This document shows, piece after piece, positions 15,141 through 32,005 of a stretch of DNA of 44,363 nucleotides. The translations under genes were made by a program, and so were the position numbers. Within the stretch, counting starts at the first letter, position 1. Each line of letters opens with the position of its first letter. The notes below the pieces were generated by a model that was not told where the DNA came from, did no database searches, and was given only the letters and a program-made list of their open reading frames with translations. The DNA lies in the sequence record MW512570.1; one strand, written 5' to 3'. This stretch comes from Clostridioides phage CD1801.

Positions 15141-15174
15141 TTTATATGTTAAAAAATGATATAATATAAGTACA

Positions 15175-15334
15175 GAATTATATTAACAATGTGGTATGTA
15201 AAGAACAGTGTTGTAACAGCAGTTAAAATTTTCATTTTTATGTTTTATATTAACCAAGTGGTATATAAATACATTGTAGGTGGGTGATGAAACACCACAC
15301 ACATTGTTTTATATTAACTATGTGGGCTCAAAAC
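15175..15334 (+). CRISPR. Mini-CRISPR array of 3 repeats and 2 spacers, with C. difficile type I-B-like repeats. No cas genes are present.
   Basis: Repeats at 15175-15203, 15242-15270 and 15306-15334 approximate GTTTTATATTAACTAAGTGGTATGTAAAT. The terminal repeat is degenerate at its 3' end. The spacers are 38 nt and 35 nt. An AT-rich leader with TATAAT lies upstream. The repeats are more divergent from each other than in a typical array. Confidence 0.55.
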
Positions 15335-15349
15335 TAAATAAACAAAGGA

Positions 15350-15380
15350 AGCACTTACTTTTTGGTAGGTGCTTTTTATT
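15350..15380 (+). terminator. Rho-independent terminator after the array.
   Basis: Stem AGCACTTAC/GTAGGTGCT (one G-U pair) followed by TTTTTATT. Confidence 0.45.
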
Positions 15381-15540: not shown

Positions 15541-15690
15541 GTGGATAATTTTTTACAAGGTGTACTAGCAAGTTTAGTTGCCAGTTTAATAGTTTACTTA
15601 ACTAGTAAATTATTTAAAAAAGTAAAAAGCCACTCCGGCCAGAGTGACTTTAGTTTTGAACTAAAGATTAAGTTCAAAAAGAAACACTAA
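15541..15690 (+). CDS. Type I toxin-antitoxin toxin-like small membrane peptide (49 aa).
   Basis: GTG start 7 nt after GGAGGTG. N-terminal hydrophobic helix GVLASLVASLIVYL and a Lys-rich C-terminus. Paralogous to the peptide at 28735-28878. The promoter ATGTTATAAT and the flanking inverted repeats are conserved between the two loci. Too short to appear in the ORF track. Confidence 0.6.
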   Translation: MDNFLQGVLASLVASLIVYLTSKLFKKVKSHSGQSDFSFELKIKFKKKH

Positions 15691-25928: not shown

Positions 25929-26228
25929 ATGAAAAAAATAACTAAGAAAGAAATTAAAAAGTACGTTAGAGAAGCGGTTAATAACAATTTTAACTGGGAA
26001 ATAAATAAATGTGGGTTTTACATTAAAAATAATGAAATAGAATTTTTTATTTCTTACAAGGGTCAAGGAATAGATGAAAATGTATATAATGATACTTATG
26101 AAGAAATAATTTACATTGAGGATATTATAGAAGAATACAGAAGAAAAGAATACAATTTAGAAGATGTAGATTCTATTGTATATGACAATGTAAATGATAT
26201 GATTAATTGTTATAATGAAGAAAAGTAA
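25929..26228 (+). CDS. Small protein with an acidic C-terminal half (99 aa).
   Basis: ORF with the SD AAAGGGGG. The C-terminus is rich in D and E. Confidence 0.45.
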   Translation: MKKITKKEIKKYVREAVNNNFNWEINKCGFYIKNNEIEFFISYKGQGIDENVYNDTYEEIIYIEDIIEEYRRKEYNLEDVDSIVYDNVNDMINCYNEEK

Positions 26229-26952
26229 TAAAAATAAATACAGTGAGTTTAATCAAATTCACTGTATTTATTTTTACAATAGTAGAATAATATTATTAGT
26301 TCAGGATGTGATAGGCTTGAAAATTGGAGATAAATTCGAAAACCTTACAATACTAGACATAGAACAAAAAAACAGTAGGAAATACTGTCTATGTAAATGT
26401 AAAAATTGTGGCAATGAAAAGTGGATAAGAGCAGATAGTTTAAAAAGAATTAAAGGGTGTGGATGTTTGCAAAAAGAAACACAGTTTAAGCAAAATGATT
26501 TGACAAATAAAAAGTTTGGAAGATTAACAGCACTAAAAAACACTAATAAAAAAGCTAAAAGTGGTCACTATATTTGGATTTGTAAGTGCTCTTGTGGAAA
26601 TGAGATTAAGACAACAGAAAACAATTTAACTACTGGCAGAACTAAATCATGTGGATGTTTGAAAAAGGAATCTAATATAAAAAATGCAAAGATAGCATTA
26701 AAAGTACATAAAGAAAAAAACATTATTGATGATACAAATCTATCTATTATAAAAAAGACAGAAGCATATCCTAATTCAAAAACTAAAATTAGAGGAGTTT
26801 CTTGGAATAAAGAAAAAAGAAAATACTGCGCACAGATAGAATTTAAGAAAACACATTATAATTTAGGATACTATGACAACATAAGAGAAGCAGAAGAAGC
26901 ATACAAAAAAGCCAAAGAAAAATTCTTAAAAGAAATAAACGGAAAAGTTTAA
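26215..26952 (+). CDS. AP2-domain DNA-binding protein with duplicated Cys-rich (Zn-binding) repeats.
   Basis: Two repeats of C.C.C..CGNE...GCGCL.KE, plus a C-terminal AP2-like segment GVSWNKEKRKYCAQIEF...YNLGYYDNIREAEEAY. The true start may be internal. Confidence 0.45.
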   Translation: MKKSNKNKYSEFNQIHCIYFYNSRIILLVQDVIGLKIGDKFENLTILDIEQKNSRKYCLCKCKNCGNEKWIRADSLKRIKGCGCLQKETQFKQNDLTNKKFGRLTALKNTNKKAKSGHYIWICKCSCGNEIKTTENNLTTGRTKSCGCLKKESNIKNAKIALKVHKEKNIIDDTNLSIIKKTEAYPNSKTKIRGVSWNKEKRKYCAQIEFKKTHYNLGYYDNIREAEEAYKKAKEKFLKEINGKV

Positions 26953-26959
26953 AAAACCA

Positions 26960-26988
26960 TTGACTTAATAAACGCAAACGTTTATAAT
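26960..26988 (+). promoter_or_regulatory. Second copy of the same promoter-operator cassette.
   Basis: TTGACTTAATAAACGCAAACGTTTATAAT is near-identical to 25864-25892 over ~60 bp. The palindrome TAAACG-CAAA-CGTTTA lies between -35 and -10. Confidence 0.55.
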
Positions 26989-27028: not shown

Positions 27029-27499
27029 ATGAATAAACAAAAAGCTAGAAGATTTTTAAGAGTTATAGATATGAATATAGATAAAATAGAGGAAGAAGCT
27101 ATAAAAGCTTTTAAAGAAAGTTGTTTAATCAAAGAGACTAATAATATAAAAATTTATATCGATATACAAGGAAAAGTTGAAGCGATAGCAGTTCAAACTT
27201 GGGCTAAACTTTTAGATGATGACAAAGAAATTAATATTTTCACATTAAATCAAACACCAACTCATTTAAACGATATGCTTGGAGAAATTTGTTACGTAAA
27301 CGATTATGAAGAATTTGAAAATTGGTGTGAAAATGAGTGGGAAAATTTGGATTGGGATAGTTATAAAAAATTCAATAAAGAAAATTTCGAAGAAATTGCT
27401 GAAAGAAATATAGATGATTGCGCATCAGTTTTTTTAGAAGAATTACGAGAAGGCATTGAAAGTTGTAAACAAGAATTACAAAATGCAGTTGAAAATTAA
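27029..27499 (+). CDS. Acidic 156-aa protein. Candidate DNA-mimic or anti-defence protein.
   Basis: Strongly acidic, with D/E/W-rich segments such as ENWCENEWENLDWD. Driven by the duplicated operator-controlled promoter. Confidence 0.4.
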   Translation: MNKQKARRFLRVIDMNIDKIEEEAIKAFKESCLIKETNNIKIYIDIQGKVEAIAVQTWAKLLDDDKEINIFTLNQTPTHLNDMLGEICYVNDYEEFENWCENEWENLDWDSYKKFNKENFEEIAERNIDDCASVFLEELREGIESCKQELQNAVEN

Positions 27500-27535
27500 G
27501 TAGAAGAGTATTATTATTAATGTATATAGTATCGC

Positions 27536-27705
27536 TTTTAAGATTAACTACGAGGGATTTAAAATATTTTTTAATTTATTTAGAAATAATATTGTAATAA
27601 GAATTTTAAGATTAACTATGAGGGATTTAAATGTCAATTTAATTTATATAGAAATAATTTAATGGCAATTTTTTAGATTAACTATTTGGAAATAAAAACA
27701 GTGTA
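27536..27705 (+). repeat. Three tandem ~68-bp units with a 29-nt CRISPR-repeat-like core plus a 38-39-nt spacer-like segment.
   Basis: Cores TTTTAAGATTAACTACGAGGGATTTAAAA at 27536-27564, 27604-27632 and 27671 onward. Each is ~72-76% identical to the C. difficile I-B repeat, including the ATTAACTA core and TTTAAAT tail. The spacer-like parts are themselves similar to each other. The third unit is truncated at the terminator. Confidence 0.6.
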
Positions 27706-27728
27706 TTTAATAAATACACTGTTTTTTA
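27696..27728. terminator. Bidirectional rho-independent terminator between convergent genes.
   Basis: Perfect palindrome ACAGTGTATTTAATAAATACACTGT flanked by AAAA and TTTTTT. Confidence 0.7.
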
Positions 27729-27739
27729 ATGCTAAAGAT

Positions 27740-28048
27740 TTAGTCATTATGATAACTTAATCCTTCGATTATAAATCCTACATTCGTCGTCATTTCTGCT
27801 TCATCACTTTGTAATATTCCTTCCGTAAATTCGCTATCGCTTGATAATGTTATTTTTTTCCTTGCCACCATTTCTAAAATTGTTTGAAATAGTTTGATTT
27901 TCATATTCTTATCAAGTCCAGCGTATTGCAAATAGTTTGCCACCTCCTGCGAAAACTTATTTAATTCAGATTTAGTCATTTTTTTAGATAATTCTTTTCC
28001 AATGCTTAAATAAACTTTTTTAGATTGTTCAACATCCATTTTTTTCAA
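27740..28048 (-). CDS. Hypothetical protein.
   Basis: 102-aa ORF with its own RBS (GGGGTTG). Confidence 0.4.
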   Translation of the reverse strand: MKKMDVEQSKKVYLSIGKELSKKMTKSELNKFSQEVANYLQYAGLDKNMKIKLFQTILEMVARKKITLSSDSEFTEGILQSDEAEMTTNVGFIIEGLSYHND

Positions 28049-28734: not shown

Positions 28735-28878
28735 ATGAGCGAATTTTTACTAGGAGTGTTAGCTAGTTTAACAGCTAGCTTTATTACATATATTATTTCC
28801 AGAAAAGTAAAAAGCCACTCTGGCAGGAGTGACTTTGAGCTTGATGTAAAAATCAAGTTTAATAAAAAACGACATTAA
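28735..28878 (+). CDS. Type I toxin-like small membrane peptide (47 aa), paralog of 15541-15690.
   Basis: ATG after GGAGGTGG. Sequence MSEFLLGVLASLTASFITYIISRKVKSHSGRSDFELDVKIKFNKKRH. The promoter and flanking inverted repeats are conserved with the first locus. Confidence 0.6.
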   Translation: MSEFLLGVLASLTASFITYIISRKVKSHSGRSDFELDVKIKFNKKRH

Positions 28879-29428
28879 TATTTAGTTAATGAAACTTCAC
28901 TCTAGGCTAATAGATTGTAGTTTCTTTTTTTGTTTTTGATACGAATTTACATCTTTATTATATCGCATTTTGAGAAAAAATAAAACTATGAATATTAGAA
29001 ATATATTTTATTTTATCTCTAAGTATATATATTATTAGCCACCTAAAAAACTTTCATAAAAACAAAAAGAACAATATCTTTTTGGCAACTGGCTGGCATA
29101 ATTTATAAGAATTTTATAAATCTTAGTCCCTATAGCTTTGCGTCACTAATTTTCTCTAGTTTTGCCGATTTAGTTTTGTTATACAACTAAAATAATACAA
29201 TAGAATTAGTTAATGTTCAACAAGGTTGTTTGAAAATTAAATAAATTTATAGGTATGAATAGTATTTATTCCTAAAAAGGAACAGAGTATTTAAAGGTCA
29301 AGGTAAGTTAGAATAGTATTGTGAACTAACATTTGATTATGCGAAATTCTATGAAACAGGAACCCTGTGACTTTAGTCATGGGAGGTTCAGTGTATATCG
29401 CGTATTTCAATTGTTATAAGTATTTTAT

Positions 29429-29482: not shown

Positions 29483-30841
29483 TTATATAAAATTAATAGT
29501 GATGTTTTTGTTATTATCTATTTCTATATAATCTATTATAGATAACCAAAAACGTCTGCGTTCAACCCTGCTTAAATCACTATACATCTCATTAATATCA
29601 ATATCTAAGAATTTTTTTATATGTGATGTATCAATAATTTGACTCTCCTGTTCTTCAGTTATATTATCTAGTTGAGATTGTAATTTTTCATAATCTTTTC
29701 TATAAGTCTCTTTATCAATCAAATCCTCTAAATATAAATCTTTGATTTTATCTAATTTTTTCATGATTTTCTTCTTTTCATCTTTTTTGTTAGATTTCTT
29801 ATTTCGTCTGATTTTTTCATTTTGTGCTTCTAATTTCACCATATGTTTATGTAATTGTGGTTTTAAGTTAGTCAAAAGGTAGTTTTCTATATGTTTTTCA
29901 TTATGAGTTACATTGTGTACACAGTTTTTATTTAGATAGAATGTAGAACATCTATAAGATAAATAAAGTTTTTCTCCAACATTACTAGAATTACCCTTTA
30001 ATGTATAACCACACTCCTTACATTTTAAAAGACCAGAAAAAATATGATAATGTATGTTTTTATTAGGAGTAGTTTTTTTATTTTTTTCTAATATTCTTTG
30101 GATTTGTTTAAATTGTTTTTTTGATATAATAGGTTCACAATAATCTTCAACATAAAATCCTCGTTTATTATAGATTCCTATATAAAGTTCATTTCTTAGT
30201 ATATTCTTTATTTTATTATAACTGTATAATTCGCCATGAAGATTATTAATTGTTTCTATTAAAGTCCTAACAGAACCTGATTTCTCGTATTCGTCAAATA
30301 TAGCTTTAACTATATATTTTTTTTCTTTATCAATAACTAGATGCTTATTTTCTATTTTGTAACCTATGGGAATTGTACCACTTATAACTTCTTTACGTCT
30401 CAATTTATCCTGAAAAACAAATTTTATTCTTTCAGATGTTTGAGCTGCTTCATTTTCTGCTACAGATAGCATAATGTTTATATGTAATCTACCAGCAGCA
30501 GTGCTAGAATCGTAGTTTTCTAAAATGGTTTTCCAATCACACTTATGTTTTTCCAAGGTTTCCATTATTTTATAATAGTTTTTAACGCCACGACTTAGTC
30601 TATCAATTTTAGTCATTAAAACTAGGTCTACTTTATCTTTTTCCACATCTCTTAATAATCGTTGTAAGTTAGGTCTTTTTAAATTAGTTGCAGAGCAACC
30701 TTCATCAATGTATTTACCAACTATGTTAAAATCATTCTCTTTAGAGTACTGTTCTAAAGCCTCTATTTGTGTCCTTATGCTATCTCCATTTAAAGCTTGT
30801 TCTTCTGTACTAACACGTATATAAAGTGCTACTCTTAACAT
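29483..30841 (-). CDS. int: Large serine recombinase (integrase).
   Basis: N-terminal resolvase motif ALYIRVSTEEQ...GDSIRTQ, a recombinase domain and a Cys-rich zinc-ribbon region. 452 aa. Confidence 0.85.
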   Translation of the reverse strand: MLRVALYIRVSTEEQALNGDSIRTQIEALEQYSKENDFNIVGKYIDEGCSATNLKRPNLQRLLRDVEKDKVDLVLMTKIDRLSRGVKNYYKIMETLEKHKCDWKTILENYDSSTAAGRLHINIMLSVAENEAAQTSERIKFVFQDKLRRKEVISGTIPIGYKIENKHLVIDKEKKYIVKAIFDEYEKSGSVRTLIETINNLHGELYSYNKIKNILRNELYIGIYNKRGFYVEDYCEPIISKKQFKQIQRILEKNKKTTPNKNIHYHIFSGLLKCKECGYTLKGNSSNVGEKLYLSYRCSTFYLNKNCVHNVTHNEKHIENYLLTNLKPQLHKHMVKLEAQNEKIRRNKKSNKKDEKKKIMKKLDKIKDLYLEDLIDKETYRKDYEKLQSQLDNITEEQESQIIDTSHIKKFLDIDINEMYSDLSRVERRRFWLSIIDYIEIDNNKNITINFI

Positions 30842-30905: not shown

Positions 30906-31379
30906 TTACAAAAAATTTGCATTCATAATACTAAATCTTGGCTCAAAAAATATCACATAATTATCTAGTGTAGCTGAAAAACCATATTTACTTTTATAAC
31001 ATTCTAAAGCTTCATTTAGAAACTTTTCAGTTACATCAAGGTATTCTGCCATTTCGGTTATAGTCTTACAGCCAGCATTAAAACTATCTATTATACCTTT
31101 AAGACCAATTAACTTGTTGTAAGCCATCAATCTAGCTTTATATTCTTGTTTGCTATTTTCAACTTTATTTAGGTCTAATATATTTCCATATGAAGTATAA
31201 TGATGTCCTAGTTCTTCTGCTAACACACAAGCTTTTTCACTTATATTATTAAGTGTATTTTTATTTAAAGCTATTCTATTATTTTTATATAATCCATGAG
31301 AATTTGAAATTAAAGGAACTTCTCTAACAATAATATTATTATCATCTGCTTCAGAGAGTAACTTTTCATAACTATTCAT
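30906..31379 (-). CDS. ImmA/IrrE-family metallopeptidase.
   Basis: HEXXH motif (AEELGHHY). Adjacent to an XRE repressor. Confidence 0.65.
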   Translation of the reverse strand: MNSYEKLLSEADDNNIIVREVPLISNSHGLYKNNRIALNKNTLNNISEKACVLAEELGHHYTSYGNILDLNKVENSKQEYKARLMAYNKLIGLKGIIDSFNAGCKTITEMAEYLDVTEKFLNEALECYKSKYGFSATLDNYVIFFEPRFSIMNANFL

Positions 31380-31396
31380 AAGTTCACCTACCTATT

Positions 31397-31852
31397 TTAC
31401 CAATTATCCATATCATCTAAATCTTGATATATTTTTTCAATTTCTCCTTCTTCATGTAAATGTTCATTGTGTGCCGCTATTGTGTCTATGTGATTTTTAT
31501 TTACATATTTACCTATTTGAGTAAGTTCATCTACTCTTTTTATTGCTTCATTTTGTCCAATATCGTTTAAGGCATTAAAGCTTGATAAAAGCTTATTTTC
31601 TTTAATTTTAATTTGTTTGCAGTCTTCGTTCCACCCCATTATAAAAGCAGGAGATTCATCTAATGCATGTGCTAAAATTTCTAGCTTATCAAGAGGAATA
31701 TTTTTTATAGCTCCCGTTTCATATCTCTGTAAAGTGGACTTACTTAGTCCAGTCTTGTTAGCTAAATCTTGATAAGACATATTAAGTTCTAATCGTTTAT
31801 TTTTTATTCTATTTGTAATCTCCAACATTTTTAAATCATTTTCAGTATTCAA
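31397..31852 (-). CDS. CI-like XRE-family repressor.
   Basis: HTH MSYQDLANKTGLSKSTLQRYETG. A TTG start after GAGGTGA is more likely than the longer 31993 start. Divergent from a cro-like gene. Confidence 0.65.
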   Translation of the reverse strand: MNTENDLKMLEITNRIKNKRLELNMSYQDLANKTGLSKSTLQRYETGAIKNIPLDKLEILAHALDESPAFIMGWNEDCKQIKIKENKLLSSFNALNDIGQNEAIKRVDELTQIGKYVNKNHIDTIAAHNEHLHEEGEIEKIYQDLDDMDNW

Positions 31853-31894
31853 ATTTATCACCTCTATAAAATATATTATAAAGTATTTTTTCAT

Positions 31895-31972
31895 AAATGC
31901 AACACATATATTGGAAAATATAAAAAAATGTTGCATTTTTGACTTGACAATATAAAATGGATGTATTAATAT
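31895..31972. promoter_or_regulatory. Lysogeny-switch region: operator-like inverted repeat plus a rightward promoter.
   Basis: Perfect 10-bp arms AAATGCAACA at 31895-31904 and TGTTGCATTT at 31929-31938. TTGACTTGACA -35 elements and TAATAT -10 upstream of the cro-like gene. Confidence 0.45.
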
Positions 31973-32005
31973 TGAATTATCCCAAATAAGCAACGAGGTG
32001 ATGGA

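Follow-up and report, generated by a model that had tools for sequence, protein, structure and literature searches.

The closest described system to the element reported here is the RNA anti-CRISPR (Racr) RacrIC1, which lies 11 nucleotides (nt) 3' of an AcrIC5 homologue on one bicistronic RNA, both products of which inhibit type I-C (Camara-Wilpert et al. 2023, PMC10651486). The same work found racr candidates to be enriched within 1 kb of anti-CRISPR (acr) genes (PMC10651486). In the genome sequence of Clostridioides phage CD1801 (MW512570.1; the whole 44,363-nt stretch that was analysed is called the window), a CRISPR-like pseudo-array occupies positions 27536-27698, its first repeat beginning 36 nt past the stop codon of an acrIB2 homologue. 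The pseudo-array is real and is most likely neither a working nor a decayed CRISPR array. We suggest, with a confidence that stands at about even, that it is a tandem, promoter-interleaved type I-B RNA anti-CRISPR ('RacrIB'), a Racr-like decoy that would be co-expressed with AcrIB2.

Like RacrIC1 beside AcrIC5, the CD1801 element is a repeat mimic that follows an acr gene in the same orientation and without a terminator between the two, in a prophage whose host has the matching CRISPR subtype. It differs in that the gap to the acr gene is 36 nt rather than 11 nt, the subtype is I-B, there are two to four tandem units instead of one solitary unit, the segments between the repeats are promoter-like, three positions show fixed departures, and the element is known here from sequence alone. 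It also resembles RacrIF1 and the solitary repeat units (SRUs) of viruses in being a repeat look-alike between genes, away from any cas gene, with a candidate promoter directly 5' and a defined 3' end; such RNAs are proposed to draw Cas6 and Cas7 into aberrant complexes by titration. What we find is an intergenic mimic of the host subtype (Clostridioides difficile, type I-B) that adjoins an acr gene in the window and at all pseudo-array loci found, and none of the genes that flank the array in the window was recognised as a cas gene. An SRU has no other repeat within ~100 bp, whereas the pseudo-array has two to four tandem units at nearly all loci; the exception is a one-unit variant in an IMG/VR contig (L018), which is a true SRU. 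Because SRUfinder discards repeats clustered within 100 bp (PMC10651486), the tandem pseudo-array falls outside the published SRU catalogue. The accessible part of the SRU supplementary data holds no C. difficile or Clostridium phage entry, and a literature search found AcrIB2 named only in its discovery paper and no link of RNA anti-CRISPRs to C. difficile phages.

Two other systems have a comparable architecture. Viral Cracr arrays (10.1101/2024.10.29.618823) are likewise phage-borne degenerate repeat/pseudo-spacer units, sometimes in arrays and sometimes beside Acrs or Racrs. Cracr spacers (CreR/CreA mimics) match a host cas or creT promoter by a protospacer-adjacent motif (PAM); for the pseudo-spacers no such target was found in the 1.27 Mb of sequence searched, and they look like promoters themselves. 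The genuine prophage arrays and mini-arrays of C. difficile (Hargreaves 2014, Boudry 2015) share with the pseudo-array the CRISPR-DR14 family, a period of 29 + ~37 nt and the orientation, as well as a compact TGnTATAAT leader at the first repeat, a degenerate terminal repeat and a terminator. Their own spacers, in contrast, are unrelated to one another, have ~31% G+C, turn over and match other phages, and their own repeats lack the A18/G21/T24 signature described below and show no linkage to acrIB2.

Organisation of the pseudo-array

A repeat search returned three copies of a 29-nt core on the + strand, with 100, 93 and 76% identity to the first copy and a spacing of 68 and 66 nt. Pseudo-repeat 1 (TTTTAAGATTAACTACGAGGGATTTAAAA, 27536-27564) is followed by a type A pseudo-spacer of 39 nt and 8% G+C (27565-27603), and pseudo-repeat 2 (TTTTAAGATTAACTATGAGGGATTTAAAT, 27604-27632) by a type B pseudo-spacer of 37 nt and 16% G+C (27633-27669). 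The terminal pseudo-repeat (27670-27698) is degenerate in its 3' half (…GGAAATAAAAA) and runs 5 nt into the stem of an intrinsic terminator (27694-27726), which was identified by repeat search and folding and can be read on either strand. The 16-nt arms of this hairpin (27694-27709 and 27711-27726) pair perfectly over 16 bp, with an A-run 5' and a T-run 3', and no spacer lies 3' of the terminal core. The hairpin is 14 nt from the stop codon of a convergent gene (27740-28048), which uses it as its own terminator. In the whole 44-kb window a degenerate pattern for the core matches these three cores and nothing else; shuffled sequence predicts 0.17 matches.

For comparison we took 112 C. difficile arrays from IMG/VR, in which the repeats are 29 nt long and the spacers 34-40 nt, with a mode of 37. 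Because genuine arrays have these dimensions, the period of the pseudo-array (65-69 nt across all variants) is CRISPR-like, and by geometry alone it would pass for a genuine array. A first-pass annotation of the window had described tandem 29-nt cores with CRISPR geometry that abut a bidirectional terminator and are ~72-76% identical to the I-B repeat. All of this stands, the identity to the three commonest genuine repeats being 72-79% (21-23 of 29 positions, ungapped). Its three core-plus-segment units have to be revised: there are three cores, as stated, and only two spacer-like segments, the third core being terminal.

Pseudo-repeats and genuine repeats

All three cores match the Rfam CRISPR-DR14 model over its full length at 18-24 bits, compared with 29-37 bits for the genuine mini-array that the window also carries (see below). 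At the gathering threshold, which for CRISPR-DR14 is a score of 45, the Rfam scan returned nothing in the array region. We compared 16 distinct non-terminal pseudo-repeats with 42 distinct genuine internal repeats (610 in total). Positions 2-4, 6, 8-15, 19-20, 22-23 and 25-28, which are near-invariant in genuine repeats, are all kept in the pseudo-repeats, and the variation of the latter falls mostly at positions 1, 7, 16, 17 and 29, which also vary among genuine repeats. Three substitutions, T18A, (T/A)21G and G24T, are fixed in the pseudo-repeats (16 of 16 distinct variants). Not even two of A18, G21 and T24 occur together in any genuine repeat (0 of 610), and the variants that bear the signature span siphovirus, myovirus and large phiCD211-type genomes. 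The repeats of a genuine array would be near-identical to the host family; with their level of identity and their fixed signature, the pseudo-repeats are not.

The proposed cut by C. difficile Cas6 leaves an 8-nt 5' tag (Boudry et al. 2015, PMC4556805) and would therefore fall between positions 21 and 22, so that A18, G21 and T24 bracket the cut and alter the third base of the tag. In terminal pseudo-repeats the 3' half is lost, which is also frequent at the last repeat of genuine arrays.

Linkage to acrIB2 and conservation

The acrIB2 homologue (27029-27499, +) encodes 156 amino acids (aa), is 95% identical to phiCD38-2 gp27 and matches phrog_4337 over its full length. AcrIB2 of phiCD38-2 has been validated and is a fused homologue of phiCDHM13 gp28-gp29 (Muzyukina et al. 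2023, PMC10732046). It is the last gene of a rightward cluster after lysis, with two unknown genes 5' and opposite-strand genes directly 3', and is highly transcribed in phiCD38-2 lysogens together with the genes upstream of it (PMC10732046). That paper gives no gp number for phiCD38-2 AcrIB2; by gene position we infer that it is gp27, because gp27 fits this description in the phiCD38-2 record. Every named AcrIB2 family member comes from C. difficile. In two IMG/VR loci the AcrIB2 homologue aligns in two pieces (L020 4001-4469 and L151 604-1072), which suggests a split or frameshift like that of phiCDHM13 gp28/gp29; a four-unit pseudo-array is intact in L151 despite the two-piece acr, and in L020 the contig ends before the array position.

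Searched against GenBank, the region 27000-28100 matches 30 phage records, all of C. difficile, and 28 of them cover at least 80% of it at 83-93% identity. The matching phages include phiCD38-2, phiCD111, phiCD146, phiCDHM11/13/14, JD032/033, phiCD506, phiCD481-1 and the large phiCD211/phiCDIF1296T group, and a 53-kb IMG/VR contig is identical over the array locus. Loci from IMG/VR were retrieved by AcrIB2 homology and by pseudo-repeat match; with the GenBank phages they give 15 distinct array haplotypes of two to four units. To these is added the one-unit form in L018 (1930-2030 of UViG_2541047382_000004), in which one terminal-type pseudo-repeat joins the leader to the terminator, 3' of an 86%-identical AcrIB2 homologue. 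Conservation in related phages had been proposed as a check in the first-pass annotation, and the same element, of one to four units and with the same two neighbours, is present at every pseudo-array locus found. The linkage is exclusive: all pseudo-arrays have an AcrIB2 homologue (50-100% aa identity) on one side and the convergent 102-aa gene on the other, and none occurs in the ~100 other C. difficile CRISPR-containing loci. Among 241 million metagenome records the pattern is present in three contigs only, all with these neighbours. The array stays ~95% identical even where the Acr protein falls to 50% identity.

Nucleotide diversity was computed over 21 haplotypes with full flanks. It is 0.047 in the 36-nt leader, 0.063 in pseudo-repeat 1, 0.038 in the type A pseudo-spacer (distinct variants only), 0.078 in the terminal pseudo-repeat and 0.037 in the terminator. 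The corresponding values at codon positions 1, 2 and 3 are 0.165, 0.142 and 0.177 in the acr gene and 0.116, 0.061 and 0.175 in the convergent gene. Compared with synonymous sites in both flanking genes, diversity in the non-coding array is lower by a factor of 2-4, which is suggestive of purifying selection.

These values bear on an alternative that we regard as unlikely, namely that the element is a non-functional relic, a duplicated promoter plus first-repeat module of a prophage mini-array kept between two selected genes and over their shared terminator. The number of units, which ranges from one to four, the free recombination into hybrid pseudo-spacers and the degraded-looking internal promoters of the window would suit a relic, as would the existence of one acr lineage (phage LIBA6276) that has no array and the activity of AcrIB2 in plasmid assays without the array (PMC10732046). 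A relic does not explain why the array is so much less diverse than the synonymous sites of its neighbours when the 13-nt gap just past the terminator is more diverse (0.145). Moreover, random decay would strike the invariant positions of the repeat; instead all of these are kept and three changes are fixed in 16 distinct variants. The same low diversity and fixed three-base signature disfavour the decayed array that the first-pass annotation had listed among its options.

Pseudo-spacers and promoter-like boxes

Across phages, three conserved types of pseudo-spacer (A, B and C) can be distinguished, with occasional hybrids, which imply recombination between units. Their order is the same in all 15 haplotypes, and the haplotypes vary solely by unit loss, duplication or recombination; the turnover of spacers between phages expected of genuine arrays is not seen. 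The pseudo-spacers have 8-16% G+C, compared with 31±8% for genuine spacers (n=372). The first-pass annotation had put the similarity of the segments at ~70% and took this to indicate duplication rather than acquisition. Their global identity is indeed 69%, and of 366 pairs of neighbouring genuine spacers (mean 52%), 99% are less alike; yet, owing to the 84-92% A+T of both segments, it exceeds shuffles of matched composition by only ~1.5 standard deviations. Global identity is insufficient as proof of duplication at so extreme an A+T content, and we replaced it by an in-register comparison and by the typing across phages. The in-register similarity is significant, with agreement at 20 of the first 26 positions (P ~5e-5), and with three conserved types, a fixed order and no protospacers outside orthologous arrays, duplication is supported.

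Copies of pseudo-spacer 1, either exact or with 95-97% identity, are present in 24 phage records of C. difficile, each of them at the orthologous position. When both window segments were compared by BLAST with 50,697 phage records, significant matches occurred only in orthologous C. difficile arrays, where the matched copies are flanked by a repeat end (…AAAT or …AAAA) and not by a CCW PAM. As a control for this search, spacer 2 of the genuine mini-array gave a match of 28/30 to the antirepressor gene of phiCD211-like phages. The unrelated, acquired spacers with CCW-flanked protospacers that characterise a genuine array are thus not what the pseudo-array contains.

A different origin is suggested by the leaders of genuine prophage-type arrays, which consist of a terminator, then TG(G/A)TATAAT, then a first repeat with a degenerate 5' end, the -10 box ending 15-16 nt before the ATTAAC anchor of that repeat. 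Types B and C have a similar box in nearly all variants: TATAAT or TACAAT, in many cases with the TG extension, located 12-17 nt ahead of the next ATTAAC. At the position of pseudo-spacer 2, most other phages have TGATATAAT and the window has a weakened box, AATTTAAT. A unit therefore resembles a copy of 'leader promoter + first repeat', which would account for both the similarity and the conservation of the pseudo-spacers, and these are best read as copies of a promoter/leader module and not as acquired DNA. In most variants these -10 boxes at leader-like spacing, often TG-extended, are candidates for the promoter that accompanies a Racr; the window's own boxes are weak. Upstream, the acr stop codon and pseudo-repeat 1 are separated by a conserved leader of 36 nt (27500-27535, +), which contains no terminator and no hairpin by folding. 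A promoter-like site, TTGAAA-17-TATTAT (27489-27517, +), spans into this leader, and another, TTGACT-17-TATAAT (26960-26988, +; 11/12 to consensus), lies just 5' of the acrIB2 homologue; both come from a consensus scan only. All of these boxes are consensus matches in AT-rich DNA, and we treat them as candidate sites only.

Within each type, strong conservation marks the 5' end of the pseudo-spacer (GTCAATTT, ATCAATTT and TATTTTTT), where the seed of a guide would lie. The units could accordingly be read as Cracr-like regulatory guide RNAs, which would be processed and whose spacers would pair partly with a host promoter (cas operon, CRISPR leader or toxin gene), so that Cascade binds without cutting and represses. 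The full geometry of a CRISPR RNA (crRNA) is present, with an 8-nt handle look-alike (ATTTAAAT), 37-39 nt and then the next repeat, and degenerate repeat/spacer arrays are known in this role for I-E, I-F and V-A (10.1101/2024.10.29.618823). However, a search for the first 14 nt of each type, allowing up to two mismatches and requiring a CCW flank, gave no more matches than shuffled controls; the 1.27 Mb searched came from C. difficile phages, prophages and CRISPR flanks, a set that includes ~112 genuine arrays with their leaders and does not include cas operon promoters. A promoter at leader-like spacing explains the conserved core of the pseudo-spacers more simply, and we consider a regulatory guide improbable.

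A model for the element

Our preferred reading is that the pseudo-array acts as a tandem RNA decoy. Because there is no terminator between the acrIB2 homologue and the array, the array would be transcribed on the + strand by read-through from the acrIB2 promoter. In most related phages, additional transcription would start at a compact leader-type promoter inside each pseudo-spacer, and all transcripts would end at the hairpin 27694-27726. The RNAs would offer two to four repeat look-alikes to the host Cas6 and then to Cas5 and Cas7. These Cas proteins would be sequestered or built into non-targeting or defective complexes, in competition with the host crRNA and its precursor, and interference would be lowered in addition to the effect of AcrIB2 itself, which presumably acts on Cas3. 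The transcription of the array, its binding and processing by Cas6 and the inhibition of CRISPR are what we infer from the sequence data.

We hold more tentatively, at rather less than an even chance, that the element is the first type I-B RNA anti-CRISPR and a self-promoting tandem decoy. Each 'spacer' would then be a leader-type promoter driving the next look-alike, and the three substitutions would make either a poor Cas6 substrate or a poisoned crRNA that traps Cas6 or Cascade. Such a decoy would form a second layer beside AcrIB2 in most sequenced phiCD38-2-, phiCDHM13- and phiCD211-type phages. A decoy for Cas6 or crRNA was one of the three options of the first-pass annotation and is the best supported of them, as an acrIB2 gene is adjacent at every locus found and the invariant repeat positions are kept. 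That annotation was silent on the acrIB2 neighbour, on the promoter-like nature of the spacers and on the genuine mini-array.

Several observations weigh against the decoy. The fixed changes at positions 18 and 24 fall on positions that are nearly invariant in genuine repeats and could abolish recognition instead of tuning it. Genuine repeats and pseudo-repeats alike fold weakly, no better than shuffles, so there is no structural argument for mimicry; the hairpin predicted in the window's terminal repeat is not conserved among the other variants. The internal -10 boxes of the window are degraded (TGTAAT in segment 1 and TTTAAT in segment 2), so that more of the transcription there would have to come from the acr promoter and the leader site 27489-27517. 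Promoter-like matches are in any case common in AT-rich DNA, with 19 found and 10.5±4 in shuffles. Plasmid-expressed AcrIB2 alone blocks interference (PMC10732046), so the array is not needed for its activity. The hybrid unit of L018 has no 3' handle, and handle-bearing units are thus dispensable in at least one lineage. Phage LIBA6276 (L148 1517-2160) has a diverged acr-like gene, 74% identical over ~500 nt and with a different 3' end, that is followed by neither a pseudo-array nor the convergent gene; because of this branch the linkage of acr and array is not universal across the family. Finally, recombination or gene conversion among units could be part of the cause of the low diversity, which is measured over short segments.

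Genes flanking the pseudo-array

The acrIB2 homologue is preceded by a 99-aa gene and a gene for an AP2-domain/HNH-like protein (26215-26952, +; Pfam AP2, E 6e-6, below the gathering score; PHROG 'HNH endonuclease' families), an arrangement that matches the phiCDHM13 acr locus in PMC10732046. The AP2-domain gene would correspond to the putative anti-CRISPR-associated (Aca) gene of that locus. The convergent conserved gene (27740-28048, -; 99-102 aa, phrog_4021) adjoins every pseudo-array on its far side. Its 102-aa product has no Pfam or PADLOC match and is predicted by a single-sequence model to be a five-helix bundle (pLDDT 73). A Foldseek search against the PDB gave no match with E<1, the Cmr5/Csm2 small-subunit folds at TM 0.43-0.49 being non-significant. 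With no such match in any of these searches, we rejected this protein as a candidate DNA-binding regulator.

These genes matter for the proposal that the element acts at the level of DNA. Either the 29-mers would bind a phage protein (the AP2-domain or the 102-aa protein), or the cluster of promoters would drive convergent transcription that controls the acr or the downstream gene, and the likeness to CRISPR would be ancestral. Regularly spaced direct repeats beside regulator-like genes, promoter-like boxes within the pseudo-spacers and the tight linkage of the array to the 102-aa gene are all consistent with such a role. However, the array is kept in phiCD38-2-type loci that have no AP2 gene, and the 102-aa protein has no DNA-binding domain or fold (best Foldseek E >1). 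Known Aca operators are reported to lie in acr promoters (10.64898/2026.07.27.740549), whereas the array is 3' of the gene. Furthermore, the conserved and the free positions are the same as in genuine CRISPR repeats, which would be unexpected for another reader of the DNA. We think that a DNA-level element has little chance of being the explanation.

A genuine mini-array in the same window

The window also carries a genuine phage-borne CRISPR mini-array (15175-15334, +), with repeats at 15175-15203, 15242-15270 and 15306-15334 and two dissimilar spacers. Its leader starts from ~15100 and has a TGATATAAT box at 15157-15165, and its terminator is at ~15351-15378 (+). The mini-array and its spacers recur in phiCD119 and phiCDHM19. 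Because spacer 2 matches the phiCD211-like antirepressor gene, it looks like an array for inter-phage competition: it has the host's repeats and real protospacers in related viruses, and the pseudo-array has neither.

The 'CRISPR array' annotated in phiCD211/phiCDIF1296T is the same element as the CD1801 pseudo-array, in a four-unit form next to an acrIB2-like gene. Garneau and colleagues reportedly read it in 2018 as a normal array with four spacers that serves warfare between phages. In contrast to that reading, we find it to be a conserved pseudo-array present also in phiCD38-2, phiCD111, phiCD146, phiCDHM11/13/14, JD032 and others, with no true protospacers. That the element is a genuine mini-array for inter-phage competition, as the phiCD211 copy has been annotated and discussed, is very improbable: its geometry and orientation are those of CRISPR, the phiCD211 GenBank record labels it rpt_family=CRISPR and the phiCD211 array is said to target known C. 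difficile phages (PMC10732046, PMC6127314), but these 'targets' are orthologous arrays of related phages flanked by a repeat end instead of a CCW PAM, the spacers are mutually similar, extremely A+T-rich and of the same three types in all phages, three fixed positions differ from every genuine repeat, and the window's real array at 15175-15334 behaves otherwise on each count. The claim that the phiCD211 array targets known phages probably reflects matches between copies of the same element.

Searches for cas genes at C. difficile loci were negative. A search by the canonical repeat in genome contigs gave 21 loci, and none of the 10 open reading frames (ORFs) checked in nine C. difficile loci was cas; tblastn found no cas gene in any C. 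difficile locus of the collected set; and the 120 matches to a Hathewaya Cas7 query included none from C. difficile. In phiCD211 a 49-aa ORF just past the conserved 102-aa gene (L001 4158-4307) is annotated as Cas3-HD/helicase. In a database of 5.8 billion proteins it matched only itself, and it has no homologue in the window; since it has no homologue besides itself, the 'cas3 gene' of phiCD211 is doubtful.

Two paralogous small ORFs, 15541-15690 (+, 49 aa) and 28735-28878 (+, 47 aa), are 56% identical. Both have a hydrophobic N-terminus and a lysine-rich C-terminus and resemble the C. difficile type I toxins reported beside CRISPR arrays. The first follows the genuine mini-array and the second lies ~1 kb past the pseudo-array. 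Between this toxin-like region and a serine integrase gene there is a cyclic di-GMP (c-di-GMP-I) riboswitch aptamer (29081-29176, -; Rfam RF01051, 69 bits, E 1e-11). A lysogeny module consists of a large serine recombinase (29483-30841, -), an IrrE/M78-type metalloprotease (30906-31379, -) and a helix-turn-helix repressor (31397-31993, -), and its presence identifies the window as a temperate phage or prophage.

Implications

The element has consequences for how C. difficile CRISPR data are read. CRISPR finders call it an array, and its pseudo-spacers then seem to 'target' the two dozen phage records that carry the same element; spacer-protospacer networks for C. difficile are contaminated by such false targets. 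Similar elements may be under-counted elsewhere, because the published SRU search discards the clustered form by design. The three fixed substitutions offer a ready mutational handle on what C. difficile Cas6 and Cascade recognise.

Phages of C. difficile are under therapeutic development, and the type I-B CRISPR system of the host is a main barrier to them. AcrIB2 is the only anti-CRISPR validated against this system. If our reading of the pseudo-array is correct, an RNA partner encoded directly behind AcrIB2 would give these phages a two-layer counter-defence, and this may explain the partial protection of lysogens and infections, which has so far not been fully attributed. It would also widen the concept of RNA anti-CRISPRs to subtype I-B and to tandem, promoter-interleaved arrays.

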